64,000 nt of DNA, taken from assembly GCA_032718475.1 (NCBI GenBank), contig JAUCBJ010002518.1:18498-82497 (forward strand). Reading direction: 5' to 3'. This document shows, one piece after another, positions 12,968 to 64,000 of this stretch. The stretch's first letter is position 1. Each line of letters starts with the position of its first letter. The stretch is from Nemertoderma westbladi (lineage: Eukaryota > Animalia > Xenacoelomorpha). A model generated the notes under the pieces. The model worked only from the letters and a program-made list of their open reading frames with translations. It ran no database searches and was not told the DNA's origin. A program made the position numbers and the translations under genes.

Positions 12968-15393
12968 AATCTATACTCTAGTGAGTACGGCCCCAGGAAG
13001 AATTAGAAGTGGATCTGGATAAACCGCTTCTGCCATCCTTGCTCCGATCTTGGGCGTCAACTCTTCAGTGTATGAACTACTAGAGTTATCGTGCCGTTGA
13101 GAAATAAGTTCTCGGTTCGGGTGCTGCTGCTGTTTAACAGCTGCTTCTTGGTCCCGCTTAACTTGAGCCCTAGTGCCTATAATAGACCTATGGTGCTTTA
13201 CTAGCGTAGGGTCTGAAACTACTACTGTAGGGATGACCTTTCTTACAGTAGGAGGGGACTTGGACTTTGGTCTCAGATGTTCGATACTCTTATCGAGTTA
13301 CAGACTGTTCTTTCTAGGAGACTATCTGACAGGGTTTGTTTTGTGTCAGCCATGATTTATTTTACAGTTGAATGCCTACTACTATAACGACAGTTAAAGT
13401 AAGTCTAGTAATTCAGTATCAACTGTAAGCCTAGTAATTAATTACCGATACCGTTACTCAGTGTAACGTGATATATATATAATATTAAAATACCGGTATA
13501 CGCTTATAGTATATATATAAGTATTATTTACAGACTAGGTTCAGTCACAGAATACCGGTATATAATTTCAGCCTAAATTTATATAAATAAATATAATAAG
13601 CTTACCGTAAATACCGGTAATGTCAATTATTTAATAATAACTGAGTTTCTGAATTTTAGGGTTACTTCCCTTTACTTTATTACTGATATTAAACAGTAGT
13701 TCAACTGATATTAAGACCTAATTGATGTATGACAGGCCTACTATTTTATAAATCTGTTTGAGTTGATTTATAAATATATATATACCCGTACAATGGGTTT
13801 TGATAATGTTTGAAATAAATGTTATTATTTCTAGATAAAGCAAAGAGTCACTACACAGAAGCTGAATGCTCTCAGTGGAGTGCTACTTGTTGGACACTAA
13901 TACGGATAATTCTACTTTACTAAGTTACTTATCACTACAAATTACTTACAATTACTAACAGGTTGAGATTACAATCTCTAAATAAACAATAAACAAGTTA
14001 CACGTACAATTTTTTAGGGTAATTTTACAAGAATTCTACGAACCAGCCTAACAAGGAGTTAGAATTTCTGGTTCTTACTAACTGACAGGAAACTATGGTA
14101 GTTGAAACCAATAAAGTAGTAGTAAGTAAGTTGCGTTGTCCAGATAAGGAAATACCACTGTCTGACGACTTATAGTCTTAAACTCTATAAGTACTACATT
14201 ATGTACCCGGAGTGTCCTTACCTAGAGGTTAATTATCGAAGCCAACCAGAACTAACGTACCTATTAACCACGTTACAACGCAAATATACTGCCTACACAC
14301 TAAATTACTTTCGGAAAGCACTGTACTCGAAACCCTAAATTAGGTACAAGTACTTATACAACAAAAAACCAGCAGTTAAATATACTTGAACAGCCAAAAG
14401 AACCATGGTATCTGCTGGAGTGACCTGAGCACAAAATCACCATTCTTTACCTACACCAAGCAGCCCTGATGTAATACCGGGGTTAATTTAACTATAATGG
14501 TATGTATAACAAGCACAATTACTGTAGGAATAAACTTAGGGAATTGGAGGTTGCGAATACTCACATAGACTCTGAATAATAAATATTACGCTACCCGTGC
14601 AGACTATTTAAACAAAACACAGACCAAATGTTGGCAGACTACTGCCAAGCCTAAATAAACTACAGTATATGCAGACTCCAAAATGGTTAGTTAGTAGGCG
14701 TTCTAACCAAGTAGTACGACTTATTCTTTTGGGGGGGATTTACCTTACAGCACTGGATGCCCCCACCTTCCTAACTAGCACTTTATCGGACAGACACTCT
14801 ACACACACTGCAATCGCCTCAGACCTAACAACAGTTAGACAACAATCCGGCCTACAAATTATTTATACAATCTAAGCAGGCTTACACACCTTCTGCTCAA
14901 TATTACACTTACAGATAAATAAAACTGACAGAAATAAGTAAAATCCCAATAAAACCAGGGCTGCAGTCCCCGATTAAATATCAAGACCTACCGGTATATA
15001 ATTATCACAATCGAAATAATACTTTTGTACCTGTAAGTACCGGTTCGGGTGATTAGGCCTACAGCTTACCGTCTGACCGGTACATTCGACTTTATTGCCT
15101 ACGGCGCAATAAAGAAACTAAATCTATTAATGTTCTTACCAGAACATTAGACAAAGTATATTTATTGCCTACTGTGCAATCAAGAAACTGAAATCTATTA
15201 ATGTTCTTACCAGAACATTAGACAAAATATATTTATTGCCTACTGCGCAATAAAGAACCAAATCTATTAATGTTCGCGCTTTTAGACCTTTAGCAGTTTA
15301 ACCTGCCAATTTTAGTTGTCCTTTTGTTTATAAATCGACTTTAGCCTATATCAATTACCTAGTGTACTGGAGTTACATCAGCCGAAGCCAGTC
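12968..15393 (-). mobile_element. BEL/Pao family A: 5' leader and first ~130 gag codons of a second, tandem, truncated copy
   Basis: Near-identical to 37130-39555; follows the LTR at 15394-16401 directly. Confidence 0.85.
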
Positions 15394-16401
15394 TGTGCGC
15401 GACCTTTCACCCACGGTTTTGGGAGACTGGACTCGGATTCCTTGATAGTGATTGCGGTGTAGACCTACTGTATTATTCAATTGATCGTTACTATATAATC
15501 TCAGACAATGTATTTACTTTCGGGGAAATATTAACAGTTCCTTTAGGACGTGGCGCTTTAAGTATAAAAACAGAGTTATGACTTATACTAATCACAACTA
15601 GATGGCCACAGAGTTTCGTAAATAGCGTATTCTTTAGGAGATGCTTTATTATCTTTCACACTACTTCACACGACTTCACACTACTTCACACTACTGCGCA
15701 CTAATCTGCCGACCGTCACTGAATTTGATCATATATAAGGAAAATCGCAACTGACACTTGTAGGGATTATGAAATAGCATTTAATTCACACAAAAACCAC
15801 TATAATTTAAGTCGCAGTTGTTACCGGTAAACCTGTTCCTCTTACCTTCAGTAATCAATAAGATTGGGGGTTTTATGATTATTTATCGGTATTCTCCAAA
15901 TATGACAACATATCCATTAATATAACAACAATTAATAACAGACCGTAAACAGAAGTAAAATAATGTGGTGAACAGTCAGTATGTGTTACTTATGAAAGCC
16001 CGGTGAGACGGGTGGTGAGTGGATTGGATTGATATGTGTAGCAATGTTCCATGATAATAGATATACGTTCTTATAATCAAAGCCATCTGATGTTTAGGCC
16101 AAAGTCTGAAACTTCTACACAGAAGTACAGAAGATTCTGAGCCGGTTCTGGTGCTCAGAAAAATAGTAAACAAAGACCGTAATGCATTGCGCGAGTTTCC
16201 ATAGGCCTCTGTCAGACATAAGGGGGAAAATCGTTCTGATTGGCTGAATAGGCAGAACAAAGAAAACAGAGAATCAGCTGATAGATGTCGTCACACCAGC
16301 TCCAATTCCTTCCCGTCGCGTAGTTGGACAAATTCAGGGCTATTTTAGAGTATTCTGCGCATTGCGGAAAAATGACTTGTTATGTCCGAAAAGCTTTTAC
16401 A
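15394..16401 (-). mobile_element. LTR (~1.0 kb) of BEL/Pao family A, shared between the tandem copies
   Basis: On the minus strand it starts TGTAAAAGC after the purine tract GGGAGCGG and ends CGCGCACA. Homologous to 39556-40155 and 58729-59866. Confidence 0.8.
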
Positions 16402-20400: not shown

Positions 20401-22760
20401 TTACGTTGGGGAGTCCCTAGATGTTTGTTGGATTAGGGAGGTGGTCGTGGGAAGAGTATCTTGCCTTCCATAGTTTCTGGATAGCTCTCTGTCTCTTTCT
20501 AGTAAACATAAACGACCAACTGGGCGATTGAGTTGTTGTGTTTCGAATACATTCGAAATACAGTAACTGATCTTCTCAGTCAGAAACCTATCCAATACCT
20601 TATAAGTGGGAAGGTCTTTAATAGCATGGACCTTTTCGGATGTTATTGGAGCGGTATCACTAGCGATCTTCGTCCTGGAATAGTGATGATGGAAACATCT
20701 TTTCAGATACACGATGGCCTTACAAAGCCGATTCCAGGAGCTATAATGATTTATTGCTCTCTGCAGGAGAGGTGAGAGTCCTTGCGCGACATCTGGAGTT
20801 CCAGATTTCCAGTCTCTTCCTCTGATTTCTACAACTGATTTGTTTGTGGTGGGGGAGTTTAGATCCACAGCGTCATCTCCGGAGGTGTGTAGTACAGACT
20901 TAAACTTAAGGTCCGATTATTTAGAGCAGCAGTAGTTCCAGTACTCCTCTATGGGAGTCCATGCTGGGCTCTAACTGCTGAGGACACCAAATCTCTGGAT
21001 GGCACATTCACAAGAATGCTACGCCGGGTTCATTGTGTCAAGTACAATGCACACATCTCCAACCAGACACTATATAACATTGGAGGTGTCTCATTGGTTC
21101 CCCCAAGCTTGACACTAGAACAAAACCGCCTCCGCTTTGCAGGACATTGCTTTCGCCGTGAGGACCAGCCAGTGCATAATCTTGTACTTTGGCAGCCTCA
21201 TGGAGTGAATAAGCATGGTGGACAGCCCATGACTTTCTTGAGACGCATCTTAAAGGACACTGGCCTTAAAGATGCGGATGATCTAGCAAATGTCATGGGT
21301 GATAGGGAGTTGTGGCGGTGCAATTTTGTTGACAAGCCGGCACAGCATTCTTAAAAATGCAGCTGCAATGCAGCATGCCGATCCTAGTAGTAGTAGTAGT
21401 AGTGTAGTACAGACAGATCTATCACGGGTTTAAATAACTTTGATTTACTCGTCCGGGTTTTAGGTTTGACTTTTTCCGCTCCCTTGGCTTGTCTAATCTC
21501 AGCCGTGGTGAGATGAGGAGGCCATTCATCCTCTTCTTTACTCAGGAAGTCGGGTCCACCTAACCAGTCTGGAGTATCTATCAGTTATTGCGGGGTTGCT
21601 CCTCTAGAGGCGATGTTGGCTGGATTAATCGTCCCAGGGCAATGTCTCCATTGATCTACATTAGAGCGACTAAGTATAATGGCTACTCTGTTGGTAACGA
21701 AGACGCTGAACTGACAGACTTCGTTTGTTATATACTCCAGAACGAGTAAAGCATCAGTCCAATAGACAGTTTTCTCCAGTGGATAGTCAATCTGTTCTGT
21801 TACATTCTGGCCGATAGCTGTAGCGTATAGAGCCGCCTTTAACTCCACTCGAGGAACTCGTAATTTGTTGTTTATCAAGGCCTTAGAGGTGACCAAGGCA
21901 ACTTTAATTCCATCCGGAGTTTCAACCCTCAGGTAGGCTACTATACCTATTCCCATATCGCTGGCGTCTCCAAACACATGGAGTTGATAGGAATACGTGG
22001 GGAGAACGTGACCAAAATATGAACGTAAAATCGTAAAGTTCTTGATGGATGGTAGAGAATCTTCCCATTTCATCCACTTCTTTAGTAGTTCTCCCTTAAG
22101 TGGATCATCCCACGAGTGGTTTTCAAGCCACATTTGTTGCACCAAGCTCCGAGCGACTAATATAACTGGACTAATAAATCCCAATTGATCGAAATAAGTG
22201 CTCAGGATACTTAGACAAATCCGTTTAGTTCTAACTGGATTATCTCACTGTTTTAACTGGAAAAACAAGATATCTCTCTCCGTGTCCCATTTTAAACCAA
22301 GCGTCTTGGTTTCCGGAAGATCGTCCTTGATGAGGTCCAGATCTTTAACACCTCGGTCTTCTACCGGGATCGATTCCAGAAACTCATGGGAGTTACTAGT
22401 GAATTTGGTTAGCCGAAATCCACCGCGTTGCAAGCACTCCACCGTTCCCTTGGCAACATCAATGGCTTCTTCCACCGATGGGAGGGACTTTAAATTGTCG
22501 TCCATGTATATATCCCGTTTGATGTTGTCAATAACCGCTTTAGAGAAGGCATCTCGGTTGTTGTCGGCAGTTGTACGCACTACCGAACAAGCGTTCGTGG
22601 GGCTCGAGATGATCCCGAAAGCTTGGATGGTCATCCAGTACTCCACCGGTTTTCGGTTGAGGTCTCCTTCAGGCCACCACAGAAATCGTAGGCTGTCTCG
22701 ATCCCTATCCAGCACCTTGACTTGTAAGAACATGCCTTCTATGTCCGAAGCGAATGCGAT
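20401..22760 (-). pseudogene. Element A pol: RT core, Pao RNase H and integrase remnant
   Basis: LRFLWW, FGIISSP and YMDD (RT); HVFGDAS, PRVEL, WTD and NPANIASRG (Pao RNase H); SSWNRL joined directly to the terminal RPVGRLCLLE. Contains stops, frameshifts and a LINE insertion. Confidence 0.9.
20900..21401 (+). mobile_element. 5'-truncated LINE (RTE-like) 3' end with (TAG)n tail
   Basis: LLYGSPCW...RLRFAGHCFR...W C-terminal motif and (TAG)n tail. 13-bp TSD GTGTAGTACAGAC at 20887-20899 and 21402-21414. Confidence 0.85.
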
Positions 22761-22766
22761 AGAATA

Positions 22767-25700
22767 TTACCGCAGTCCCAATAGTATTCCCAACAAGGAT
22801 TGGAGTAAGTTGGGTCCCGGCAACAGTTCGGAGTTCAGGGATTGACCCATATAAAGGGCGGAGCCGTCAAACACTACCCGGAATTCGTTGGCTTTACCAG
22901 GCTTGGGAACGTAATGATGTGTTAGATAATACGTTCTTTCCATTATGGGTGTTTCTTCCGGAACTCGCTCCGCATATCCTTTATCAATAAATTTCTTCAG
23001 CTGGGTTCTATACATTTCCCTGGCTTGATCGTTGGCAGTAAGACGCCGATGTAGTTGCGCGATTCTCTTTTCCGCTAAAGGTCGGTTATTTATAAAGGTG
23101 GGTTCTCGCCGTCGGAATGGAAGACCAATCTCATAGCGACCTTCATCCTTCAGATAATGGGTTGTCGTTTCCTGAATCTGCTTGGCTCTCTCTTCCTCGA
23201 CAGACAAGGCTTTGTTGTAGGAATTAGGCTCTACGGCTTCTTGAGTAAAGAATCGTACGGCGTGTTCATCACGGATTTTGTTATTGTATCGATCTATCAC
23301 TTCATTTAATTCGTCATTATAAGTAAATTGTCCGCCATGTTGATCGATGAGATGGCATAGGTTGACTTGGTTTAACCAAGTTTGGGTTTTGGTGAGGAGA
23401 TCGATTATGTTTTCCTCATCATACAGTTGATTAATGTCGTCATTATCTGAGGAGTATGGAGTTCCCTCAGTTGTGGTTTCTCCCTCACTGATTTCTTCTT
23501 CCCATTCACTCACCTGATGTACTCTCTCATTAGGGAGTCTTTCCATTAGAGTTCTACGGGAAGGTCCAGTGAAGTACCAACCTACTCTCGTTCTTCCCGC
23601 ATACGTTTGTAATGGTTGCGGTTTTTCTAATGTCTCAAGCGCTTCGTGCGCATTTTGGCCGATTAATATCTGCACCCCTGGATAGTCAGTGTTGAATCTA
23701 GGTATATTATGTTGCTGGGTAAAATGGTCTTCATCCCAGTTGTAAGGTTCCACTTGGCTAGTAGCAAAGTTCTTTATAGCCACCATTTTTACCGACCTTA
23801 CACTATGTTCTCCTAGTTCATCCTGGGGAGTGGATAACACACCCACGTAGTAATCTGTGGCTACTGTGGATTTCCAAACCTGCATGATTCCTGAAAGGTT
23901 CAACTTAGTTCGGAACTTGGCTTGTCCAGCAAAGATGTCTTCGGCTAGTTCTTTGTCGATGAATCTACCTGTGCTGCCGGAGTCAAGTAGGGCGTTTACT
24001 ATCAGGCTCTTCCCTAGCCCATGGACTCTCAGCTGCACCACAGGAAATTCCCGGATTCCGACAGAGGAAGTTGGCGCTTTCCAAGATGGTTGTCGGTCCG
24101 GAATAGTCAGTTTAGGATTTTCCACCTCCGATTCAGTCTCGTACGTAAGTGCTCGATACACAGCGGTGTTTATCATATAACAGGATTCATTTTCGTCGGA
24201 GAATTCGTCCGTGTAGAATCCTTCCATCTCAGAACTGTGGTCAGTGTCGATCACATCACTGAATTGGACATGTAGTTCAGGCTCACTTACCTGACTCGTG
24301 CGGGTTCTGTCAAATTCTGTGTGCAGCAAGATGTGATGTTTCGCGCCGCACTTAGCACACCTCGCGTCTGAGTAACAGGTCCGTCGTTGGTGTCCTCGTC
24401 TGAGGCAATTATAACACAACCGCTTATCCCACATGACATCACGTCTATCCTTAAGGGATTTCTTCAAGAATTCATCACACCCACTCAAGCGATGTGGCCC
24501 GTCGCACAATGCACATTTGGGTTTGATGTTACTTACTTTAACATGTGTTGTGTTGTGCACACTTGTTCTTTCCTCTGGCTTTCTTCCATGAATTCTCTTA
24601 GGAGACGTAGGAGGAGTTGTTACCTGATCTCTCCTGTCACTGGTTCGAGACTTAGATTTACTTACGTCTTTCCTCATTTTATTGACATAATAAGATCTTT
24701 CAGTGTCCTTACCGCTATTCTCCTCGTATGAGGTTTGGCTTTCGCCATCGTCCGTATAACACACTGGTGTTACCTTTCTCCTAGAAACGGGTTTTTCACT
24801 CACCTTACTCTCTGGTGTCTTCTCTCTGGACTGCTTTAGGAGCTGTAATCTTACCTCTCCATTTAAGAATGACATAAGATCAGCCATGGTAGGGTCTCTT
24901 TGTTGCTGGTCCATCATATAGAGAACCTTGTTGTCCCAACGATTACCTACTCCACCCTTTGGCAAAATTGGCAAAGTAGATGCTACGGCTCCAACAACCA
25001 TAGAACTCTGATATTCTTGAGACTTACCTAACCAATCTAGCTGTCTACAGATCTCTTGAATCTCATTGGAAAACTCTATAATCGCGCTGCTAAGAAACTT
25101 TCGGGGCGCTACTAATTTCGCATATAAATACCTAGCTATGTTAGTCCTATTACCATACCTGATGTTTAGTGTATCCCAAACTTGTCTTAATCCATCTGGA
25201 TGTCCAATAAACTTTAACGCCATTAACTTGGGAGGTCCTTCCAAGCACTCGGTGAGGAATCTAAGTTTCTCTCTGTTAGATAGTACAGAGTTCTGTATGT
25301 TATCTTTATAATATTCATTAAAAGGTAACCATTTCATCTCATATCCATTAAACTTGACGACCTCTCCCACCTTTACCGCTTGACGGGCTTCGGTTCTAGC
25401 CATTTGACGTGTAAAACTTTCTTGAGCCATCGTATTATTTAATATCGAGTTATCGGTATATAAATTTCTCGGATTATGATCAGATCTGTATGGGATATCA
25501 TTATCAACGGGTTTATAATTACCCTTAATAGGGTTTACTATAGGAGTTTCTACTTCACTAGTAGTATAGATGCGTGTAGGCTCCACACCTTGCGCATGAA
25601 ATATTTCAGATCTAATGGGTTGACACATTGTTACATGGGGTGGTGGTATACCCATTTGTATATTTACTAATTTATCGCGCTCTAAAGCGATACTTTGTTG

Positions 25701-26177
25701 TACTTCTTGTAACTCTAACCTACTCTCTCTCACTGTTCCCTTTAACTGCTGCACAGTACCTTCCAATTCTCGGACCTGCTGTGAAGACCTTTGTCTATGG
25801 TCTTCCAGTTGCCCGAGCAGGCGGTTCATCCCCCGCCGTCCCTTGTCCACCCACTCAACCGCTGAAGCGGGAGCCGCCAACATAGTAGCGGGGTGACGCG
25901 TAGGGACGACGGGAGACAAGTCATTTATGTCTTGCTCGGCGTCCAGGACCGGATGTGGTTCCGGGGCTTGTCTACTGGGCACAGGTAATTTAGTACTGTG
26001 CAAAGGGAATTTAGAGTTAGGTTCTGGAAGTACAGGGGTCTCCATCACCGGAGTGGCTTCCATGACAGGCCTAATTATTTCAGGCTCATCTACTATAGTA
26101 GGGAGTCTTTCTACTCTAATAATTTGGTCTGTAGGTTCTTGATTACTTAAGTCTACATTAGCTAGTTGCCTTCTCAC
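22767..26177 (-). CDS. Element A gag-protease-RT N-terminus
   Basis: KFNGYEMKWLPF gag core; BEL triple knuckle CALCDGPHRLSGC / CYNCLRRGHQRRTC / CAKCGAKHHILLH; protease LLDSGS; RT RVVFDGSA...SLNSELLPGPNL. Confidence 0.92.
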   Translation of the reverse strand: MRRQLANVDLSNQEPTDQIIRVERLPTIVDEPEIIRPVMEATPVMETPVLPEPNSKFPLHSTKLPVPSRQAPEPHPVLDAEQDINDLSPVVPTRHPATMLAAPASAVEWVDKGRRGMNRLLGQLEDHRQRSSQQVRELEGTVQQLKGTVRESRLELQEVQQSIALERDKLVNIQMGIPPPHVTMCQPIRSEIFHAQGVEPTRIYTTSEVETPIVNPIKGNYKPVDNDIPYRSDHNPRNLYTDNSILNNTMAQESFTRQMARTEARQAVKVGEVVKFNGYEMKWLPFNEYYKDNIQNSVLSNREKLRFLTECLEGPPKLMALKFIGHPDGLRQVWDTLNIRYGNRTNIARYLYAKLVAPRKFLSSAIIEFSNEIQEICRQLDWLGKSQEYQSSMVVGAVASTLPILPKGGVGNRWDNKVLYMMDQQQRDPTMADLMSFLNGEVRLQLLKQSREKTPESKVSEKPVSRRKVTPVCYTDDGESQTSYEENSGKDTERSYYVNKMRKDVSKSKSRTSDRRDQVTTPPTSPKRIHGRKPEERTSVHNTTHVKVSNIKPKCALCDGPHRLSGCDEFLKKSLKDRRDVMWDKRLCYNCLRRGHQRRTCYSDARCAKCGAKHHILLHTEFDRTRTSQVSEPELHVQFSDVIDTDHSSEMEGFYTDEFSDENESCYMINTAVYRALTYETESEVENPKLTIPDRQPSWKAPTSSVGIREFPVVQLRVHGLGKSLIVNALLDSGSTGRFIDKELAEDIFAGQAKFRTKLNLSGIMQVWKSTVATDYYVGVLSTPQDELGEHSVRSVKMVAIKNFATSQVEPYNWDEDHFTQQHNIPRFNTDYPGVQILIGQNAHEALETLEKPQPLQTYAGRTRVGWYFTGPSRRTLMERLPNERVHQVSEWEEEISEGETTTEGTPYSSDNDDINQLYDEENIIDLLTKTQTWLNQVNLCHLIDQHGGQFTYNDELNEVIDRYNNKIRDEHAVRFFTQEAVEPNSYNKALSVEEERAKQIQETTTHYLKDEGRYEIGLPFRRREPTFINNRPLAEKRIAQLHRRLTANDQAREMYRTQLKKFIDKGYAERVPEETPIMERTYYLTHHYVPKPGKANEFRVVFDGSALYMGQSLNSELLPGPNLLQSLLGILLGLR

Positions 26178-26554
26178 CGCAGGAGGTAAATTGGGTAACT
26201 TCTGACGGTGTGGCGTTCTTCTACATCTGCTTGTATGAGATTTATTACCTTTCCCCTCGGGATCTGTTGTATCACCCTCATCGGAGGAGGTAAATCCCTG
26301 TCTTCTGGGAGTAGATTAACTCAGTATTTGCATCTGAGTAGCTGTCCTTTGTTTCTTCAAGTAATCTTGTTTCGCCTGAAGGTTCTCCAGCTCTAGTTGG
26401 GTAGTCGCTTCAGACGCCTTCTGTTCTGTCTCTGCCACTGCCGCCTTTCTTTCAGCCTCTGCAGCTGACGCCTTCCTCTCAGATTCTGCCGCTGCCTCTG
26501 CCGCTGCCGCTTTTCTTTCAGCCTCTGCAGCCGATGCCTTCCTTTCAGATTCTG

Positions 26555-26672: not shown

Positions 26673-27581
26673 TTTTCTTTCAGATTCCGCAGCTGCCGCC
26701 TTCCGCTGCTGCTGACCTTCGGTCTTCTATTTGCCTTTTCTTTATCTGCTCTTCTTGGTCCATCGCTATGAGGATGCTTTCATCAAATTTAACCTGCTCC
26801 GCAGCTAATATTTCCGCATCTAACGAGTCCAACACAAATTTGGCTCCCTCACTATTAGGGTGAAGTCCAGCTAGCCGTCTCCTTAGCTCTTTGTCACCTA
26901 TAAATCGTTGATAGTCCGACAGATAGATGTCAATAGCATCCTTCTTGTTAGCTTATTCAATCCCGCTAACACCCCATAAAGTTATAAGCCGATAAGCAAT
27001 ATTGGGAGCCACGAGATTGGGCAATTAACCAACTCGTGCCATCCCAATAAGAGTGGGAAGGAAGCACACAATAAAGGGTCAGGGGCCAAACCCCTAACCC
27101 AGAGAGTACAGGTGGAGTGAACGGGAACACTCCACGGGGCGCCAACAAGGGTATCAACCAATCAGAGGGGGGCAAGGCATCGATTAGGTAGTAATTAGGC
27201 CAACCGTGCAATATAATCAGTAACCTATTAATCAGTAATTCAGTTATCTCAATGCAGTAGTGCTAGCATAGGTTAGTTAGTTTAGATAGGGGAGCACGGG
27301 ACTTTTAGTTACCGTATCCCGCCTTCCACATATCTATATCTATATCTTATACCCATCAGTTATTATACACCAAACATCAGAACTCATTCACTGCTTTCGT
27401 TTACTCTTTATACACGGCGGGGACGCGTAAACTAAAATACCGGATAAATCGGGATCCCTCCTGGATCCCGTCACAGTAACTAAAATCTAGTTGCCGCCCT
27501 AGCTAAACTGTAAAAGTAACTAAAACCAGCTGCCGCCCCAGATAAAAGCCAAACCACCAGTCACCAATCTGCAGAAGAGAG

Positions 27582-37514: not shown

Positions 37515-40164
37515 GATTTATTTTACAGTTGAATGCCTACTACTATAACGACAGTTAAAGTAAGTCTAGTAATTCAGTATCAACTGTAAGCCTAGTAATT
37601 AATTACCGATACCATTACTCAGTGTAACGTGATATATATATAATATTAAAATACCGGTATATGCTTATAGTATATATATAAGTATTATTTACAGACTAGG
37701 TTCAGTCACAGAATACCGGTATATAATTTCAGCCTAAATTTATATAAATAAATATAATAAGCTTACCGTAAATACCGGTAATGTCAATTATTTAATAATA
37801 ACTGAGTTTCTGAATTTTAGGGTTACTTCCCTTTACTTTATTACTGATATTAAACAGTAGTTCAACTGATATTAAGACCTAATTGATGTATGACAGGCCT
37901 ACTATTTTATAAATCTGTTTGAGTTGATTTATAAATATATATATACCCGTACAATGGGTTTTGATAATGTTTGAAATAAATGTTATTATTTCTAGATAAA
38001 GCAAAGAGTCACTACACAGAAGCTGAATGCTCTCAGTGGAGTGCTACTTGTTGGACACTAATACAGATAATTCTACTTTACTAAGTTATTTATCACTACA
38101 AATTACTTACAATTACTAACAGGTTGAGATTACAATCTCTAAATAAACAATAAACAAGTTACACGTACAATTTTTTAGGGTAATTTTACAAGAATTCTAC
38201 GAACCAGCCTAACAAGGAGTTAGAATTTCTGGTTCTTACTAACTGACAGGAAACTATGGTAGTTGAAACCAATAAAGTAGTAGTAAGTAAGTTGCGTTGT
38301 CCAGATAAGGAAATACCACCGTCTGATGACTTATAGTCTTAAACTCTATAAGTACTACGTTATGTACCCGGAGTGTCCTTACCTAGAGGTTAATTATCGA
38401 AGCCAACCAGAGCTAACGTACCTATTAACCACGTTACAACGCAAATATACTGCCTACACACTAAATTACTTTCGGAAAGCACTGTACTCGAAACCCTAAA
38501 TTAGGTACAAGTACTTATACAACAAATAACCAGCAGTTAAATATACTTGAACAGCCAAAAGAACCATGGTATCTGCTGGAGTGACCGGAGCACAAAATCA
38601 CCATTCTTTACCTACACCAAGCACCCCTGATGTAATACCGGGGTTAATTTAACTATAATGGTATGTATAACAAGCACAATTACTGTAGGAATAAACTTAG
38701 GGAATTGGAGGTTGCGAATACTCGCATAGACTCTGAATAATAAATATTACACTACCCGTGCAGACTATTTAAACAAAACACAGACCAAATGTTGGCAGAC
38801 TACTGTCAAGCCTAAATAAACTACAGTATATGCAGACTCCAAAATGGTTAGTTAGTAGGCGTTCTAACCAAGTAGTACGACTTATTCTTTTGGGGGGGAT
38901 TTACCTTACAGCACTGGATGCCCCCACCTTCCTAACTAGCACTTTATCGGACAGACACTCTACACACACTGCAATCGCCTCAGACCTAACAACAGTTAGA
39001 CAACAATCCGGCCTACAAATTATTTATACAATCTGAGCAGGCTTACACGCCTTCTGCTCAATATTACACTTACAGATAAATAAAACTGACAGAAATAAGT
39101 AAAATCCCAATAAAAACCAGGGCTGCAGTCCCCGATTAAATATCAAGACCTACCGGTATATAATTATCACAATCAAAATAATACTGCTGTACCTGTAAGT
39201 ACCGGTTCGGGTCATTAGGCCTACAGCTTACCGTCCGACCAGTACATTCGACTTTATTGCCTACGGCGCAATAAAGAAACTAAATCTATTAATGTTCTTA
39301 CCAGAACATTAGACAAAGTATATTTATTGCCTACTGTGCAATCAAGAAACTGAAATCTATTAATGTTCTTACCAGAACATTAGACAAAATATATTTATTG
39401 CCTACTGCGCAATAAAGAACCAAATCTATTAATGTTCGTGCTTTTAGACCTTTAGAGGTTTAACCTGCCAATTTTAGTTGTCCTCTTGTTTATAAATCGA
39501 CTTTAGCCTTTATCAATTACCTAGTGTACTGAAGTTACATCAGCCGAAGCCAGTCCGTGCGCGGCGTATGACCCACGGTGTGGGAGACTGGATTCGGATT
39601 CCTTGAGAGTGATTGCAGTGTAGACCTACTGTATTATTCCATTGATCGTTACTATATAATCTCTGACAAATATATTTACTTTCGGGGAAATATTAACAGT
39701 TCCTTTAGGACGTGGCGCTTTAAGTATAAAAACAGAGTTATGACTTATACTAATCAGAACTAGATGGCCACAGAGTTTCGTAAATAGCGCATTCTTTAGG
39801 AGATGCTTTATTAACCTTCACACTACTTCAGACGACTTCACACTACTTCCCACTAGTTCGCACTAATCTGCCGACCGTCACTGAATTTGATCATATATAA
39901 GGAGGATCGCAACTGACACACGTAGGGATTATGAAATAGCATTTGATTCACACAAAACCACTATAATTTAAGTCGCAGTTGCTACCGGTAAACCTGTTCC
40001 TCCTACCTCAGTAATCAAGAAGATTGAGGGGTTTATGATTATTTATCGGTATTCTCCAAATATAACAGCAATATCCATTAATATAACAACAATTAATAAC
40101 AGAAGTAAAATAATGCGGTGAGCAGTCAGTATGTGTCATCAGAAAATAGTAAAGTAAATGGGAC

Positions 40165-41015: not shown

Positions 41016-41021
41016 GATGGA

Positions 41022-43244: not shown

Positions 43245-44003
43245 CTGAGGCATAGTCTGAGCCTCAGTGAGGCATAGTCTGTGCCTCAGTGCCTCAGTGA
43301 GGCATAGTCTGTGCCTTAGCGAGGCATAGTCTGTGCCACAGTGCCTCAGTGAGGCATAGTCTGTGCCTTAGCGAGGCATAGTCTGTGCCTCAGTGCCTCA
43401 GTGAGGCATAGTCTGTGCCTTAGCGAGGCATAGTCTATGCCTCAGTGCCTCAGTGAGACATATTCTGTGCCTCAGTGCCTCAGTGAGGCATAGTCTGTGC
43501 CTCAGTGCCTTAGTGAGGCATAGTCTGTGCCTCAGTGCCTCAGTGAGGCATAGTCTGTGCCTTAGCGAGGCATAGTCTGAGCCTCAGTGAGGTATAGTAT
43601 GTGCCTCAGTGCCTCAGTGAGGCATATTCTATGCCTCAGTGCCTCAGTGAGGCATAGTCTGTGCCTCAGTGCCTCAGCGAGGCATAGTCTGAGCCCCAGT
43701 GAGGCATAGTCTGTGCCTCAGTGAGGCATAGTCTGTGCCTTAGCGAGGTATAGTCTGTGCCTCAGTGCCTCAGTGAGGCATAGTCTGAGCCCCAGTGCCT
43801 CAGCGAGGCATAGTCTGAGCCTCAGTGAGTTATAGTCTGTGCCTCACTGAGGCATAGTCTGAGCCCCAGTGAGGCATAGTCTGTGCCTCAGTGAGGCATA
43901 GTCTAAGCACCAGTGAGGCATAGTCTGTGCCTCGGTGCCTCAGTGAGGCATAGTCTGTGCCTCAGTGCCTCAGCGAGGCATAGTCTGAGCCCCAGTGAGG
44001 CAT
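43245..44003. repeat. 22-bp tandem repeat, right subterminal array of the Polinton-like element
   Basis: TGAGGCATAGTCTGTGCCTCAG units, inverted relative to 8506-8862. Confidence 0.92.
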
Positions 44004-44997
44004 AGGATTAAATGTTCTAATTAATTGATGACACCCGTAAATTAGGGTCTAATTAGCCTAATTAGGAGGTGTCACCCAGACAGTCTGACGCCAATGACAC
44101 CCAATGACACCCTAGGTGTCACATTCCTAAGCGATGAGTCATGAGTTGGGTCTAACTGTCGCCGAGCCGGCTATACTCCTACTACTGGAAACTTAATTGG
44201 TAACTAAGTAGAAGAGTGCAAAGTTTAGTCAATCGATAGTCATTGGACTAAAGATTGTCTGTACCAAATTTGGAGAACCCCATCTAATAGCTATGTTAAA
44301 TCCTTGTTGCTAAGGAAAAACACATGAAATTGAAAGTGATACAATTATTATATTTTTATAGAGTTTTTCTATACTAACGTTAACCTGAACAATGGCCTAC
44401 CGGTACTAATAATAGGCTTTGACTTAACACAAACATAGACATAAAACTACTATTTATATGAACACAAAACACAAAAAACAACTACAACAGGCAGTTAAAC
44501 ATATATATGACTAGCCCCATATTTATTCTTATTTTATGTACAATTCGAATACATTACTGTATACAGATAGATATAACAAATAACTACTATTTTATTCATT
44601 CATATGCAGACAACTACAAAGTCACTTATTTGAGAAGTTCGCTTTGGAGGGACTTCGCAAAGAACAAAATTTCCCTGAGATTCCACACTAGACTATTTGG
44701 CGAAATTAATCTCTGAGCTATACGTTTGAGGATCACTGAGTGTTGATATCAAATTGTTATCACAAATTTTTCTTATCATCAATCGCACATGAAAACTAAC
44801 AGAACAAAGCAGTATATACTACAAGTATTAAATATCGCCTCAGGAAAAGTCTAGAAGCATACGAGTCACAGCCAACAGGAATGGGCTGCGTGAGTGAACA
44901 AATAATACAAGTTCATTTTCAATTATTGCACTTCCTAAATAAGTTGTGAAATCCATCCATTCAAATATCTCAAATGATGATTACCTTTGCAAAGTCT

Positions 44998-47049: not shown

Positions 47050-47289
47050 ATTATTTTGGTTTATTTCACTATTATAAATGTTAAAATATTTCGTAGGTGG
47101 ATTTTACTAAAGTTTATTAATCTTTGAATATTCTGCACGTAGATCAACTTGTTAGGCTAGTTAAGTGCTAAAAATAACCTACGTTCTGGAACATATATTT
47201 ATGTAATATACTATTCAAAAACTCTTAGCAACTACTTACGTAATTTTATTTCAAGTTGATGATTATTGCAAAGCTCTGCATTCAACTAT

Positions 47290-50701: not shown

Positions 50702-50933
50702 GATTTCTAGAAGAATGGTATGTTAAACAGGCTGAGTGCAATCAAGAATGTGTGGTACCTTGTACCCAATGGGAATATTCATTCGCAGTTGAAAAGGAAT
50801 CCGGCGTACCAACAGATTCATATGGATTAGATCACGACTTTGAAAACTATCCAAAGTTACACACACTAGCTCAACAACTCTGTAGCGGTGAAAATAGTGA
50901 TGAAACAAGTACAGAGTGGATAGATTGCGCAAG
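50702..50933 (+). CDS. DEG/ENaC exon (end of thumb, C..PC....Y motif)
   Basis: Acceptor TTTGCGCAG| and donor AAG|GTAGGT. Phase 1 matches the exon ending at 4212 (C+GA = Arg). Encodes FLEEWYVKQAECNQECVVPCTQWEYSF... Confidence 0.82.
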
Positions 50934-56900: not shown

Positions 56901-58728
56901 GGAAGGTAGGTGCATAAATAAAACCAAGTACTGAGTGGATAGATTGGGGAGGGTAGGTCCATAAATAAAATCAAGTAAAGAGTGGATAGATTGCGCAAGG
57001 TAGGTCCATAAATAAAACCAAGTAAAGAGTGGATAGATTGGGGAAGGTAGGTGCATAAATAAAACCAAGTACATAGTGGATAGATTGGGGAAGGTAGGTG
57101 CATAAATAAAACCAAGTACTGAGTGGATAGATTGGGGAGGGTAGGTCCATAAATAAAATCAAGTAAAGAGTGGATAGATTGGGGAAGGGTAGGTCCATAA
57201 ATAAAACCAAGTAAAGAGTGGATAGATTGGGGAAGGTAGGTGCATAAATAAAACCAAGTACTGAGTGGATAGATTGGGGAGGGTAGGTCCATAAATAAAA
57301 CCAAGTAAAGAGTGGATAGATTGGGGAAGGTAGGTGCATAAATAAAACCAAGTACTGAGTGGATAGATTGGGAGGGTAGGTCCATAAATAAAACCAAGTA
57401 AAGAGTGGATAGATTGGGGAAGGTAGGTCCATAAATAAAACCAAGTAAAGAGTGGATAGATTGGGGAAGGTAGGTGCATAAATAAAACCAAGTACATAGT
57501 GGATAGATTGGGGAAGGTAGGTGCATAAATAAAACCAAGTACTGAGTGGATAGATTGGGGAGGGTAGGTCCATAAATAAAATCAAGTAAAGAGTGGATAG
57601 ATTGCGCAAGGTAGGTGCATAAATAAAACCAAGTAAAGAGTGGATAGATTGGGGAAGGTAGGTGCATAAATAAAACCAAGTACATAGTGGATAGATTGGG
57701 GAAGGTAGGTGCATAAATAAAACCAAGTACTGAGTGGATAGATTGGGGAGGGTAGGTCCATAAATAAAATCAAGTAAAGAGTGGATAGATTTCGCAAGGT
57801 AGGTGCATAAATAAAACCAAGTAAAGAGTGGATAGATTGGGGAAGGTAGGTGCATAAATAAAACCAAGTACAGAGTGGATAGATTGGGGAAGGTAGGTGC
57901 ATAAATAAAACCAAGTAAAGAGTGGATAGATTGGGGAAGGTAGGTGCATAAATAAAACCAAGTACAGAGTGGATAGATTGGGGAATGTAGGTGCATAAAT
58001 AAAACCAAGTAAAGAGTGGATAGATTGGGGAAGGTAGGTGCATAAATAAAATCAAGTACAGAGTGGATAGATTGTGGAAGGTAGGTACATAAATAAAACC
58101 AAATACATAGTGGATAGATTGGGGAAGGTAGGTGCATAAATAAAACCAATTACAGAGTGGGTAGATTGGGGAAGGTAGGTGCATAAATAAAACCAAGTAA
58201 AGAGTGGATAGATTGGGGAAGTTAGGTGCATAAATAAAACCAAGTACAGAGTGGGTAGATTGCGCAAGGTAGGTGCATAAATAAAACCAAGTACTGAGTG
58301 GATAGATTGGGGAAGGTAGGTGCATAAATAAAACCAAGTACAGAGTGGGTAGATTGGGGAAGGTAGGTGCATAAATAAAACCAAGTACAGAGTGGATAGA
58401 TTGGGGAGGGTAGGTGCATAAATAAAACCAAGTAAAGAGTGGATAGATTGGGGAAGGTAGGTGCATAAATAAAACCAAGTACATAGTGGATAGATTGGGG
58501 AAGGTAGGTGCATAAATAAAACCAAGTACAGAGTGGGTAGATTGGGGAAGGTAGGTGCATAAATAAAACCAAGTACAGAGTGGGTAGATTGGGGAAGTTA
58601 GGTGCATAAATAAAACCAAGTACAGAGTGGGTAGATTGGGGAAGGTAGGTGCATAAATAAAACCAAGTAAAGAGTGGATAGATTGGGGAAGGTAGGTGCA
58701 TAAATAAAACCAAGTACAGAGTGGGTAG
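50906..58728. repeat. 47-bp satellite, about 166 copies (CAAGTACAGAGTGGATAGATTGGGGAAGGTAGGTGCATAAATAAAAC)
   Basis: Visible array. The first unit overlaps the exon end and splice donor. Interrupted at 58729 by an LTR. Confidence 0.97.
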
Positions 58729-59866
58729 TGTAAAAGCCTTTGCTGAATTGCCCCGTTATTTTTATTATCTTTTACATTAAAATACTCTGTAGTTGATTTA
58801 ATAGGTGTAAGAGACCGTATTATTGCTATATCGGTGTTTTTTAGAGGATCTAAGACCTATTTCCTCCGTATGTGTACGGTGAAAGGCATAGTTGATGATT
58901 CTATGGCAATTCCATGACGCAAAGGGTGATAGCTACTCTTGAACAGTAGTTACTATGACTACGGTTAACAGCTGATATCCATATGTGTTGATTTTCTTTG
59001 TTCTACGGCGTCTCTCAGTTCAGTCAGCCAATCAGAGCATTTTTATGGCTCTTGTTGAGAAATTTCCTAGAAATCACGTAATGCTTTATGTGCAGTGTTT
59101 ACATTCTGTACTGAGCCAGGAGAGATCGGCTTGGAAATATTTTATGCTGTTCTGTTTTAGCTTAACACTAGTAGGCTTAATTATAAAGGGCATATATCCG
59201 TTATCACATAACATAACATTGCAAACCATCACATAACAAACCAAACTGGTTATCAACACTGCAAACGTAACTGATGATCTGCATGTACCACATACCTGTG
59301 CATACGTTTATATTGTTATACTGCTATTTACTGTCAGTTCTTCATAATATGGTTGATGAATTATTATATTTGGAATAACGATAAATAACCCCGAAACCCA
59401 ATAATCTTGATATACCGAAGGTAAGAGAGAAAGGTTACATATAACGATTGTGACTTATGTTAAAGTGGTTTGAAGTGAATCTAATGTTATTTGATAGACC
59501 CTACATGAGTCGGTCTGTGTTCCTTTTATATGTGACTAAAATCAGTGAAGATCGGCAGATCAGTGTGCAGTATTGTGCAGCATTGTGTATGAGTGAGACT
59601 GATAACGAAGCATTTCCTAAAGAATGCGCCATATATGTGAATTATAACTAAGCCATATCGTTGTGAGTAGTTTAAGTCATAGCTCTGTTTATATAGATAG
59701 AGCGCCACGTCCTAAAGGAACTGTTAATATTCCCCGAAGGTGAATAATATTGTCAGAGATTATATAATACTGTCAGTCGAATAATACATTAGACTTACAT
59801 AGCAATAAGATTAAGCCGTCGAACCCAATCTCCCGGGTATATCCAGCGGGTGAATGATCGCGCACA
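58729..59866 (+). mobile_element. 5' LTR (~1.14 kb) of BEL/Pao element C (A-related family)
   Basis: TGTAAAAGC...CGCGCACA, homologous to the reverse complement of 15394-16401. Inserted in the satellite after GGTAG (expected 5-bp TSD). Confidence 0.8.
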
Positions 59867-62167
59867 GATTGGTTTCGACTAGTGTAGTGAATCAAATACT
59901 TGTCAAAGGCTAAAAGTGATTTATTATATAGAAGACATCCTAATTTGGCGGGTTAAACTGCCAAAGGTCTGAAAGCGCGAACAATAACGGATATAGCTTC
60001 TGTATTGCAGTAGGCAATAAAGCTGAAGTACCGGTACCGGCAACCGGTACCCAGTAGGCCTGACTACCTAACCACCCGGACCGGTACCTACAGCAGTACA
60101 GGTACAGCAGTATTATTCGATTTTGATTATTATATACCAGTAGGTCTTAATAATTAATCGGGGACGCCTGGTTTTTATTGGGATTTTACTTAGGCCTATT
60201 TCTGTCAGTTTTATTTGTTTGTAGGCCAGTATTGAACAGAAGGCGTGTAAGCCTGATCATATTGTACAGACAATTTGTAGGCTGAGCTGTTGTCTGATTG
60301 TTGTTAAGTCTGAACGGATTGCAGTGTGTGTAGAGCATCTGTCCGATAAAGAACGGTTAGGAAGTAGGGGCAGCCAATGCTGTAAGGTAAACCCCCATCT
60401 AAAGAATAAGTCGTACTACTGAGTTAGAGCGCATACTACATAATCATTTCAGAGTCTGCATGTCCTGTAGTTTATTTAGGCTTGAGAGTAGTCTGCCATC
60501 GTTGAGTCTGTACTTTGTTTGTGTAAGTCTGTACAGGTAGCGTATAATATTTATTTAGATAATTTGTAGGCTGGATAGTTGTCTGGCTGTTATTAGGTCT
60601 GAATGGATTGCAGCGTGTGTAGATCACTTGTCCGATAAAGAACGGTTAGGAAGTAGGGGCAGCGAATGCTGTAAGGTAAACCCCCAACTAAAGAATAAGT
60701 CGTACTACTGGGTTAGAACGCATACTACCTAATTATTTCGGAGTCTGCATATACCGTAGTTTGTTTAGGCTTGATAGTAGTCTGTCAGTGTTCGGTCTGC
60801 ATTTTGTTTGAGTAGTTTGTACGCGTAGCGTAATATTTATTATTCAGAGTTTATGCGATTATCCGCAACATTCATTCCCCAAGTTTGTTCCTACAGTAAT
60901 TGTGTTTGTTATACATACCGCTATAGTTAAATTAACCCCGGTACTACACGGGCTGCTTGGCGTAGGTAAAGACTGGTGATTTTGTGCATCGGTCACTCCA
61001 GCAGATGCCGTGGTTCTTTTAGCTGTTCAAGTATATTTAACTACAGATTATATGTTATACAAGTACTCGTACCTAATTTAGGGTTTAGTGTACAGTGCTT
61101 TCCGAAAGTAATTAGTGTAGGCATTACATTCGTGTTGTAAAGTGGTTGATAGGCACTTTCGATTAGCTCTATTAACTTCTAGGTGGGAACACTCCGTGAT
61201 ACATAACGTAGTACCTGTAGCGATACGGCTATAGGTCGTCAGGCGGTGGTATTTTCCTATCTGGACAACGCAGTGTATTTGCTGCTACGTATTATTTTCA
61301 AATACCGCAGTACCCTGTCCGTTGTAATAACCAGATTTCTAACCCTTTGTTAGGCTGGTTTGTAGACTTCTTGTAAAATTACCCTAAAAATTAGTATTTT
61401 GTGTTTTTGTAAATTTTTGTGTTTATTTAGAGATTGTAATCTCACCTGAATTGTACGTAATTTGTAGTATTAAGTAACTTAGGTAAATTAGAATTATTTG
61501 TTTTAGTGTCCTATAAGTAACACTTCACTGAAAGCGCACCGCTTTGTGTAGTGTTCCCCCGAAATAATAACATTTATTTCAAACATTGACAAAACCCATT
61601 AAAACGGGTATATATATATTATAAATCAAATCTAACGATTTATAAATAGTAGGCCTACCATACAACCATTAGGTCTCCATATCAGTTGGTCTACTGCTCA
61701 AATAGCGGTAATAAAGTAAGTAAAGTAACCAAGTAACCCTAAAAATTCAGAAATTCAATTATTTAAAGTATTTGACATACCGGTATTTACGATAGGCCTA
61801 TTATCTTTATTTCTATAAATTTAGGCTGAAATTATACCGGTACTTTATAATTAATTCTAGTCCAGAATTATAATTATATATACTACAAAACTGTAAGCTG
61901 TATACCGGTATTCCTGATAGGCCTATTATATATTTATATACATTTGTGCTAAAATTATACCGGTATTCTGTGATAAACCTAGTCTGTAATAATACTTATA
62001 TAGTTATATGTACCATAAGCATACCGGTGTTCTAATATATTATATATATATCCTACTACACTGAGTAGCAGTACCGGTAATTAATTACTAGGCTAGCAGT
62101 TAATACTGAGTTACTAGACTTGCTCAGACTGTAATACAGCAGTAGACATTCAACGGTATACATAGAC

Positions 62168-64000
62168 ATGTCTGATACTAAGCAGAACCTGTCAGACAGT
62201 TTATTAGATGTAACTATCTGCGACTCAGATAGAGACGTAGAACCGTCTTGTCGTAAGTTCAGTTCACCTCCCACTGTGAGGAAGGTCATCCCTCCAGTAG
62301 TAATAAAAGAACCTAGGCTGGTCCAACATCGTAGGTCTGTCATAGGCACTCGAGCTCAGGTCAAGCGGAACCAAGAAGCAGCGGAACAGCAACAACCCGC
62401 GAGCCAAGAACTTACTTCTCAACGGCCCGATAGCTCCAGTAGTGAAGATACGGTAGAACTGACACCCGAACGCGGAGCAAGGATGATGGATGAGGCTTAT
62501 TCAGATCCCCTTCTCATCCTTCCTGCAGCCGTACTCACTAGGTTATTGATCGCTGTGGAAGAACACCAGATCGATTGGGCGAGAAGCCAGCGTTCAACTA
62601 GAGATAGTTATGCGGGATACACGAGTGAAGAACTGAAGTCTATTGTCGAGTCGCAATGGAACTTCCCCGGACCCGGACTCCCGTTTGATTTATCAGAAGC
62701 TGCCTGGGAAGACATACACCGGATGGGAGTAGCCAAGGAAACCATCGATCCAGCTGTGTGGAAGAGGTCCGCAGCCGGATACGCACAGGGATTCTTCAGC
62801 TCTATAGAGCGATTAAAAGAACAACTGTTTCATCAACCTCAAGGACCTCAAGAGCAGGGATTGCTGCTTTATCAAGTTAGAGAAAGAATTCTACGAATCA
62901 GGCTAATCTTATCGGCCTTTGAGGAGGCTTCTAAACGAAGACAAGACACGTCGTTGCAAGTCGCCGTAAAGACTTGGTTTCAAAGGGTGAATCTCCAGGT
63001 TCAAGGAACAGCTCAGTGGAAAGCTCAGCTAGAGGAGCGATCAACCCATGGAGAATCAACAGACGCTACTTTTTCCCAAGTGGAAAGTGAAGCGACGGCA
63101 GAGAAACCGCATAAGAGGGATGCCATTGACATCTATCTGTCAGACTATCAACGTTTTTTAGGTGATGACGAGTTGAGGAGAAGGTTAGAGGGGCTTACCC
63201 CTAATAGTGAAGGAACCAAGCTTGTGCTGGATGCCATCGATGTGGAAATGAGAGCTGCGAACCAGGCTAAATTTGATGAACAACTCCGCATCACACGAGT
63301 CCAGGAGGAGCAAATCAAGAAAAAACTTATAGAAGACAGAAAGACAGCGGCAGTGGCAGCAGCAGTGGCAGCGGCAGAAGCAGAAAGAAAAGCGGCAGTG
63401 GCAGCGGCAGAGGCAGAGGCAGAAGCCGAAAGAAAAGTGGCAGCGGCAGAGGCAGAGGCAGAAGCCGAAAGAAAAGTGGCAGCGGCAGAGGCAGAGGCAG
63501 AAGCCGAAAGAAAAGTGGCAGCGGCAGCGGCCGAAGCAGAAAGAAAGGCGGCTGTAACAGCGGTCGAGGCAGTAGCAGAAGCAGAACGGAGAGCTTCCGA
63601 AGAAACCACCCAATTAGAATTGGAAAACATTCAGGAGAATCAAGACTGCATAAATAAACAGTTAACAGCTAGTAATATGCAGATGATGAATCGATCTACT
63701 CCCAAAAGACAGGGATATACATCATCTGAGGAAGGCGATACCACCGATACTGAAGGCAAAGGAAATAGATCTCGTCTAAGCAGACGTAAAAGAACATTCC
63801 ACCGTCAGAAATTGCCTGATTTGCCTCCAGCTGTTAGAAGGCAATTAAATAACACCAACTTAGGTAGTACAGAGCCCACAGACCAAATAATTAAAATAGA
63901 AAGACTCCCTACTATAGTAGATGAGCCTGAAATAATTAGGCCTGTTCTTGAAATCACCCCTTCGGTGATAGATACACCTGTGCTCCCTGAAACTACCTCT
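62168..64000 (+). CDS. Element C gag(-pol) N-terminus, open to the window end
   Basis: ATG at 62168 (MSDTKQNLSDSLLDV...QWNFPGPGLPFDLSEAAWED...AAAEAEAEAERK...LPTIVDEPEIIRPV). No stop seen; aligns with the disrupted gag of element A. Confidence 0.85.
   Translation, partial: MSDTKQNLSDSLLDVTICDSDRDVEPSCRKFSSPPTVRKVIPPVVIKEPRLVQHRRSVIGTRAQVKRNQEAAEQQQPASQELTSQRPDSSSSEDTVELTPERGARMMDEAYSDPLLILPAAVLTRLLIAVEEHQIDWARSQRSTRDSYAGYTSEELKSIVESQWNFPGPGLPFDLSEAAWEDIHRMGVAKETIDPAVWKRSAAGYAQGFFSSIERLKEQLFHQPQGPQEQGLLLYQVRERILRIRLILSAFEEASKRRQDTSLQVAVKTWFQRVNLQVQGTAQWKAQLEERSTHGESTDATFSQVESEATAEKPHKRDAIDIYLSDYQRFLGDDELRRRLEGLTPNSEGTKLVLDAIDVEMRAANQAKFDEQLRITRVQEEQIKKKLIEDRKTAAVAAAVAAAEAERKAAVAAAEAEAEAERKVAAAEAEAEAERKVAAAEAEAEAERKVAAAAAEAERKAAVTAVEAVAEAERRASEETTQLELENIQENQDCINKQLTASNMQMMNRSTPKRQGYTSSEEGDTTDTEGKGNRSRLSRRKRTFHRQKLPDLPPAVRRQLNNTNLGSTEPTDQIIKIERLPTIVDEPEIIRPVLEITPSVIDTPVLPETTS

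Follow-up and report, generated by a model that had tools for sequence, protein, structure and literature searches.

A covarying self-complementary site beside the 5′ LTR of a divergent BEL/Pao family is consistent with self-primed reverse transcription

The replication of BEL/Pao elements is described by the ICTV as poorly understood and as primed by a host tRNA at an 18-nt tRNA(Arg/Gly) site (PMC8742986). In the 64-kb window (the whole stretch of DNA analysed here), the bases at the primer-site position of one BEL/Pao element, here called C, are instead complementary to a short arm within the element's own LTR, and the same is seen in two copies of a related element, A. Self-priming has been demonstrated in Tf1; for a few gypsy and copia lineages it is a prediction. 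Could the LTR arm take the place of a tRNA in A and C (together, A/C)? The reading preferred here is that A/C may be self-primed in a Tf1-like manner from the 5′ copy of the LTR, to which we give a probability of roughly 0.45; that A/C primes itself in one form or another seems, on the same evidence, somewhat probable.

The elements themselves need to be placed first. C lies on the plus strand, with a 5′ LTR at 59284..59866 (start approximate; end at 59864 or 59866, inferred). Homology with the A copies sets in at 59284, and when contigs of five public runs (X1 to X5, from four samples) were aligned at 80% likeness, the summed depth, which is not the same as copy number, climbed from less than 350 to about 1e6 (X1, X2) in the bins 59274-59347. 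The gag-region ORF of C (62135..64000, +) is open at the window end, so that the sequence of C leaves the window within gag. Element A (copy A1) lies on the minus strand, with its 5′ LTR at 39556..40136 (placed by homology and alignment) and a gag-protease-RT-RNase H region at 21519..26315 (-) that was severed from its 5′ part by the insertion of a third element, B. The RT-RNase H part of A has two in-frame stops, and no integrase of A was found in the window. A second 5′ LTR of this type, A2 (15394..15986, -), belongs to a truncated insertion: because A1 and A2 share 97% identity across 3 kb, 2.4 kb of which is internal sequence, and no PPT is seen ahead of A2, it is a separate insertion and not the 3′ LTR of A. 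The 64-kb window holds no 3′ LTR, PPT or TSD of A/C.

A and C had been taken for two lineages with dissimilar LTRs, but the LTRs are 71-73% identical by BLAST (462 of 647 aligned columns), the leaders and gag are 77-80% alike (BLAST) and the gag ORFs overlap in sequence, that of C covering the start of A's ORF; judged by these alignments, A and C are a single BEL/Pao family. A has the gag-PR-RT-RNase H arrangement with DUF1759 and Peptidase_A17 that is expected of BEL/Pao (its integrase being absent from the window). BEL-type polyprotein domains occur in all 120 homologues listed, and identity to full-length matches is 22-25% among those listed; by its domains, the family is a divergent BEL/Pao LTR retrotransposon. 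B serves as a comparison case. It spans 26946-36561 within A, its 5′ LTR (26946..27475, +) is 99.4% identical to its 3′ LTR (36032-36561), and it has the two LTRs, PPT and 5-bp TSD (CTTCT) expected of BEL/Pao as well as TGT...ACA ends; in RNase H it is only 30% identical to A. B also has an extra ORF that appears exonuclease-like (a lead only). An Rfam scan of the window returned only four chance miRNA-like matches, in satellites, with none at the stem described below and no ribozyme family, and searches of viral contigs and GTDB contigs returned no relatives. A host-gene search gave no match at E 1e-20.

The complementarity at the heart of the question is between an LTR arm, the predicted self-primer, and an arm at the primer-site (PBS) position. 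In C these lie at 59818..59831 and 59866..59879 (both +); in A1 at 39585..39597 and 39544..39556, and in A2 at 15424..15436 and 15382..15394 (all -). All the strings on which the original prediction was built are present where it had placed them, and a pair table gives the same counts: 12 of 13 pairs in C, 11 of 12 in A1 and 10 of 12 plus one G-U in A2. All three copies have a single central mismatch between pyrimidines, at a shared position (59824 x 59873 in C). The duplex was thought to begin exactly at 59867; an additional pair of 59831 T with 59866 A (C and A2) or G (A1) makes the helix one pair longer (13 of 14 in C) and places its start one base earlier. The LTR arm is upstream of the primer-site position by 30-36 nt in A/C. 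In dinucleotide-shuffled LTRs, an equally good match was found in 1/3000 shuffles for C (13-nt word), 3/3000 for A1 (12 nt) and 15/3000 for A2 (12 nt); with a 10-nt word, the figures are 54/3000, 30/3000 and 408/3000, respectively. Whole-fragment folding z-scores are modest (-1.0 to -2.0, sense strands), so the signal is a positioned match rather than overall stability. The A/C duplex is real, and it has the hallmark of a Tf1-type site, namely that a site adjoining the LTR end (this end being inferred to within 2 nt) is complementary to the LTR of the same element over about 11 nt.

Covariation of the two arms provides a second line of evidence. Between C and A1, the two independent subfamilies on which the comparison is based, 4 of 14 positions have changed in each arm, and three of the four changes face each other (p 0.041). 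The three consist of two compensatory pairs (59828/59869, A-T vs G-C; 59819/59878, T-A vs C-G), both of which had been foreseen, and of the mismatch, which is swapped from C-T to T-C. The pairing energy is -16 kcal/mol between an arm and the site of its own subfamily, and -11 to -12 kcal/mol when the site comes from the other subfamily. As A and C are one family, this covariation is within-family and not independent evidence. The aligned contigs add further variants, but those at 59869, 59873 and 59878 are A-type letters and hence not independent either. Two others (59825 C>T and 59866 A>G) yield G-U pairs, and 59877 G>A, at a CpG, breaks a pair and accounts for about 5% of depth in X1 and X3. 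The variant 59828 A>G stands at 20-62% in one contig variant table and is missing from the other, so the tables are incomplete and unphased. Unphased loose contig ends suggest that there may be a third subfamily, in which a transversion at 59820/59877 (C-G to A-T) would be compensatory. Finally, the persistence of the central mismatch implies that the primer site is not recopied from the arm in every cycle.

Is the A/C site a tRNA site after all? Usable upstream DNA was present for 37 of the 79 BEL loci fetched, and five of these 37 (two near-identical) share a TGG-led site 2-5 nt past ACA, which we take to be complementary to tRNA-Tyr. These tRNA-type sites have six fixed bases followed by variation at positions 7-8. 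The A/C sites retain TGG (3-5 nt past the LTR end) and TTCG, as if two bases shorter than the tRNA-type sites; between A and C they were said to diverge from the fourth base of the TGG tract on, but within the first 10 bases the differences are at positions 4 and 9. Paired with complements of four tRNA-type sites (proxies, not host tRNAs), the C site reaches -7.9 to -8.7 kcal/mol and the A sites -9.4 to -11.5 kcal/mol, and genuine tRNA-type sites cross-pair at -25 to -33 kcal/mol. With the proxy from locus L047, 565, 403 and 413 of 2000 shuffles pair equally well (565 for C, 403 for A). In addition, position 16 from TGG, presumably the one opposite the conserved tRNA C61, is G in 4/4 tRNA-type loci and T in A/C. 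By proxy pairing and by geometry, then, A/C do not show the 18-nt tRNA site of BEL/Pao, in line with the original prediction, which called the TGG tract unlike a conserved tRNA PBS. Elements of the Cer7 type encode a tRNA-like primer of their own; ARAGORN found no tRNA genes in the window or in the 53 of 79 loci scanned, and a second complement of the site on the element strands was limited to one 11/12 match, at 25393 in gag-pol (the 3′ parts of A and C are missing from the window). The A/C site probably descends from a tRNA-type site, given that it has kept the TGG and TTCG core and has a layout of six pairs, a mismatch and a distal helix.

Other BEL loci also have sites complementary to their own LTRs. 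The primer site of B (27476..27485, +) has no TGG, starts at the first base past the TSD-proven LTR end and is 10/10 complementary to an LTR arm at 27303..27312 (+). None of 3000 shuffles matched at 10/10 and an offset scan peaks at offset 0; with longer words, the shuffles reach 72/3000 (12 nt) and 288/3000 (13 nt). As far as base pairing can tell, B, a distant BEL element, shows the same self-complementary signature as A/C. In the 37 loci, complements were also sought across GT(A/G)AG...AG splice junctions in each locus's own LTR. Complements of at least 11 pairs occur in 6/37 loci (two of them identical copies), compared with 0/37 on the reverse strand and 0/148 in cross-locus comparisons; the corresponding figures are 8/37, 1/37 and 6/148 at a threshold of at least 10 pairs and 3/37, 0/37 and 1/148 at one of at least 12. 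The loci of this splice-junction type (L004, L005, L013, L031/L032, L044, L059 and L065) form one branch, with SH-aLRT 96 in a quick 53-row RT-RNase H tree and support of 96/90 in a careful 21-row tree without B. In the 21-row tree, A falls just outside that 96/90 branch and joins a group of 12 rows, none of them tRNA-type (88/93); its branch is long, and a placement together with the tRNA-type locus L009 is not rejected (p-AU 0.107).

Splicing does not make the primer in C, A1, A2 or B, where the best junctions give 9, 8, 10 and 10 Watson-Crick pairs of 13, compared with 12, 11, 10 and 10 unspliced. The C LTR does contain a splice-donor-like site (59421..59426, +), canonical in C and A2, but no junction forms a primer. 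A short-loop 11/12 stem in L003, the row nearest to A, was likewise rejected: it sits inside a 453-codon opposite-strand ORF and has no matching LTR, and stems of its type gave one real match in 61,412 bases versus two in five shuffled rounds. A relaxed scan produced uncontrolled leads at L002, L027, L064 and L014, with L028 and L023 showing the background level; it also gave 11/12 matches at several unrelated sites.

How such an arm might act depends on where the RNA begins and ends. A TATA-like motif common to C and A in the alignment (59761..59767, +) lies 57 nt ahead of the arm, with none 30 nt ahead (unlike Tf1), and from it transcription would start near 59790, so that the primer would be an arm in the interior of a roughly 40-nt fragment. 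C reads AATAAG at 59804..59809 (+), where 59809 G>A makes AATAAA; the AATAAA form, 21 nt before the arm end, represents 55-78% of C-type contig depth in all four runs, from which a poly(A) site close to the end of the arm would be expected in C. A1 and A2 lack it at that place, and A has AATAAA only at 251 nt before the LTR end. In C transcripts that stop no later than 59950, the stem has a predicted probability of about 1.0, and the core pairs of A1 reach 0.86-0.99, but in longer transcripts the stem falls to 0.0-0.11 in C and 0.1-0.7 in A2. For the longer C transcripts, folding predicts that a leader segment (59934..59966, +) contends for the primer-site arm. In B, the arm prefers a U5 partner in predicted folds (primer duplex 0.0-0.04).

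Self-priming is the best-supported interpretation of the duplex on four grounds: the non-tRNA behaviour of the site, the covariation, the presence of the signature in B at a proven LTR end, and the self-complementary sites in a related BEL branch. In the proposed route, the 13-14-nt LTR arm would serve as the primer for reverse transcription instead of a tRNA. The transcript would begin near 59790 and the hairpin would fold while the leader is being made. The element's RNase H would then cleave the RNA where the arm stops on its 3′ side (59830 or 59831), as in Tf1, and the freed 3′-OH would prime about 30-36 nt of minus-strand strong-stop DNA across the LTR end. This DNA would jump to the transcript's 3′ end, for which the poly(A) site must lie 3′ of the arm. 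Cutting of the 5′ copy is preferred because of proximity, precedent and the persistence of the intron within the LTR of the splice-junction relatives. Several observations count against the route. An AATAAA 21 nt before the arm end leaves little repeat for strand transfer; and the arm lies away from the predicted RNA 5′ end, the C stem is lost in longer transcripts, and the variant 59877 G>A breaks a pair.

The alternative that survives best, though we consider it unlikely, is that A/C are tRNA-primed through a short or degenerate site and that the hairpin is a conserved regulatory fold acting only at the 5′ LTR, for example by masking the 5′ poly(A) site or controlling access to the primer site. 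The retained TGG would fit, since tRNA-type BEL loci have it at a similar distance from the LTR end and also vary at positions 7-8, as would the ICTV's account of BEL priming (PMC8742986). The region where poly(A) cleavage is predicted falls within the stem, retroviruses choose poly(A) sites by RNA structure (PMC3694450), and the competing fold in longer C transcripts frees the arm. The pairing and position-16 results speak against a tRNA, as does the fact that the A- and C-type sites would require different tRNAs. B has no TGG at all, and the splice-made complements in relatives are inexplicable by a tRNA.

A second alternative, slightly less probable still, keeps self-priming but moves the primer to the other end of the RNA. 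The genomic RNA would end at the arm (about 59830) in the 3′ LTR, with R at about 59790-59830, and after loss of poly(A) this end would anneal to the site and prime. This was the route that the original prediction gave as its example, whose self-primer reading of the duplex holds up better than its choice of the transcript 3′ end. It would also be the most far-reaching form of self-priming, as the literature searched describes no LTR element that is primed by the 3′ end of its RNA after poly(A) trimming. The position of AATAAA in C favours this route, and together with the TATA-like motif at 59761 it would give a classic U3-R-U5 layout that leaves about 28 nt of repeat available for strand transfer; the exonuclease-like extra ORF of B is a further lead, but it has no match in A. 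Against this route, A1 and A2 have no AATAAA there, the poly(A) must be removed, and the 5′ copy, only 30-36 nt away, would fold first and occupy the site. The intron that persists in the LTR of the splice-junction loci also argues for a 5′-copy primer in those elements.

The preferred 5′-copy reading presupposes that the LTR ends where it is placed. If it ended elsewhere, which we regard as improbable, the hairpin would be an ordinary LTR/leader structure and the true primer site would have gone unrecognised. In favour of such an error, the window has no A/C 3′ LTR or TSD to fix the boundary, and the depth in X1 just past 59866 (1.15e6) is similar to that before 59829 (1.09e6); X1 and X3 both show a depth peak at 59829-59865 and no clean step at 59866. 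Position 59866 is also polymorphic, with a G share in read-through contigs of 35% in X1, 15% in X3, 0% in X4 and 73% in X5. Yet the stretch 59311-59902 has a mean depth roughly 2-3 times as high as that of 59903-60300, and across 59854-59874 depth drops from 2068 to 464 in X5 and from about 154 to 39 in X4. Among 31 contig pieces listed, two from X1 end at 59864, two (X4, X5) cease to fit there and two (X5) do so at 59865, and B has the signature at a proven end. This evidence leans towards a terminal CA at 59863-59864 followed by a short spacer, rather than at 59865-59866; the usual ACA terminus, as in B, favours 59866. Either end is, we assume, compatible with the priming geometry. As for chance complementarity passed on by descent, it is very improbable even though A and C belong to the same family, the covariation p is no better than 0.04 and 11/12 matches turn up at unrelated sites, because just 1-15 of 3000 shuffles match at a position fixed in advance, two pairs are compensatory and B stands independently at 0/3000.

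If A/C are self-primed, a covarying self-complementary BEL site would add a third superfamily to those that prime themselves, the switch from tRNA to self-priming would be traceable beside tRNA-type and splice-junction relatives, and the failure of PBS-based annotation to pick up such elements would be explained. The short duplex and short U5 make the proposal directly testable by end-mapping. A wider scenario, which we put forward only as a doubtful extension, is that a large part of BEL/Pao has swapped tRNA priming for self-priming, with A/C transitional (a TGG-bearing, tRNA-derived site captured by a contiguous LTR arm) and sister lineages building the same primer by splicing. No report of BEL self-priming was found in the literature searched, most subscription papers and Repbase notes being outside the search; neither De la Chaux 2011 nor Copeland 2005 has any text on a PBS or a tRNA.

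Known systems resemble A/C to different degrees. The closest in mechanism are Tf1, Tf2, Tj1 and the Tf1/sushi group, which likewise have no tRNA site and have a site beside the 5′ LTR end that is complementary to their own LTR RNA over about 11 nt. The duplex in Tf1 is formed by the initial 11 bases, and the RNase H cut falls between bases 11 and 12 (PMC7175516, PMC4600332); the 3′ end of the A/C arm similarly faces the first base of the site, as such a cut requires. The differences are also clear. Tf1/sushi elements are Ty3/gypsy chromoviruses, whereas the A/C proteins are BEL/Pao and give no sign of a chromodomain; the A/C arm measures 13-14 nt, retains a central mismatch and sits only 30-36 nt away from the site; and it apparently lies about 30 nt inside the transcript, not at the 5′ end. 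Tf1 priming takes place within a three-duplex 'pretzel' fold (bioRxiv 10.1101/2022.12.06.519325), but pseudoknot-free folding of A/C gave no convincing flanking helices of that kind, only weak inner helices that differ among C, A1 and A2. Published accounts place self-priming in the Tf1/sushi, Tcn1 and TAR lineages (PMC6317226, PMC3601003). For TAR (Houba/Osr-1) copia and Tcn1 plant lineages it was, as in A/C, deduced from sequence and set beside tRNA-using relatives (PMC6317226), but A/C belong to another superfamily and host. Within their own superfamily, the elements agree with the ICTV's Belpaoviridae in having a DUF1759 gag, protease, RT and Peptidase_A17/RNase H in BEL order and, in B, a 5-bp TSD and TGT...ACA ends; they depart from it in that neither A/C nor B shows the 18-nt tRNA site (PMC8742986), and A is highly diverged. 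The splice-junction BEL loci, close to whose branch A appears to fall, also have sites complementary to their own LTR RNA, the difference being that the arm of A/C and of B is uninterrupted in the DNA. Set against these systems, A/C would represent a known mechanism, self-priming, in a new superfamily.

The primer site of several BEL comparison loci (L004, L005, L013, L031/L032, L044, L059 and L065) is complementary only to the junction created when a canonical intron within the LTR is spliced out; this intron is 71-423 nt long in the six splice-junction loci measured. On the RT-RNase H tree these loci fall on one branch, and control counts were near zero. Two other observations are uncontrolled leads: a contiguous 11-nt arm at 273-283 of L002, a locus within this branch; and, in L064 (942-953), which lies near A, a splice-type complement of a site in which the core of the tRNA-type (TGG-led) motif is retained.

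In the A/C family, a canonical splice-donor-like site is conserved about 140 nt into the LTR (59421-59426 in C, with an equivalent in A2, the truncated second insertion of the A type). There is an additional donor-like site near 59740. The leader (59867-62135) is unusually long at about 2.3 kb and contains internal tandem repeats. Immediately upstream of C lies a 47-bp satellite (50786-58900; about 167 copies, about 96% identity), and other satellites occupy 2585-3789, 8499-12279, 40239-41018 and 43245-44005.

An uninterrupted minus-strand ORF of 701 codons (44998-47103) appears to be a host gene that has diverged strongly: its NSUN5-type Pfam matches are weak (E about 0.05), and a homologue search at E 1e-20 came back empty. 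Three minus-strand ORFs (16480-18693) that separate A2 from the RNase H of A had no Pfam match. A weak amiloride-sensitive sodium channel (ASC) match at 1907-2386 on the plus strand, under the curated cut-off, fits an animal host.

Element B, the distant BEL inserted in A, also has a non-tRNA primer site (27476-27485) that is complementary to its own LTR, in an arm starting at 27303. The arm (27303-27323) has a second partner in the U5 segment 27416-27436, a pairing apparently retained in a solo LTR (42284-42842) despite letter changes, and the primer site is duplicated at about 27517-27527. Two alternative partners and a duplicated site could possibly constitute an RNA switch. B's LTRs are 99.4% identical and its RNase H-integrase ORF is open; no gag-RT is recognisable in the element (27476-28882). 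These features point to a deleted element that was mobile recently. Its extra plus-strand ORF (32770-34839; 689 codons) carries three CCHC-like knuckles and had no match in Pfam and PDB searches; an ESM lead (0.88) points to DNA_pol_A_exo1/EXD1-like exonucleases. Rotifer gypsy-type elements are known to carry DEDDy ORFs (PMC5408684).
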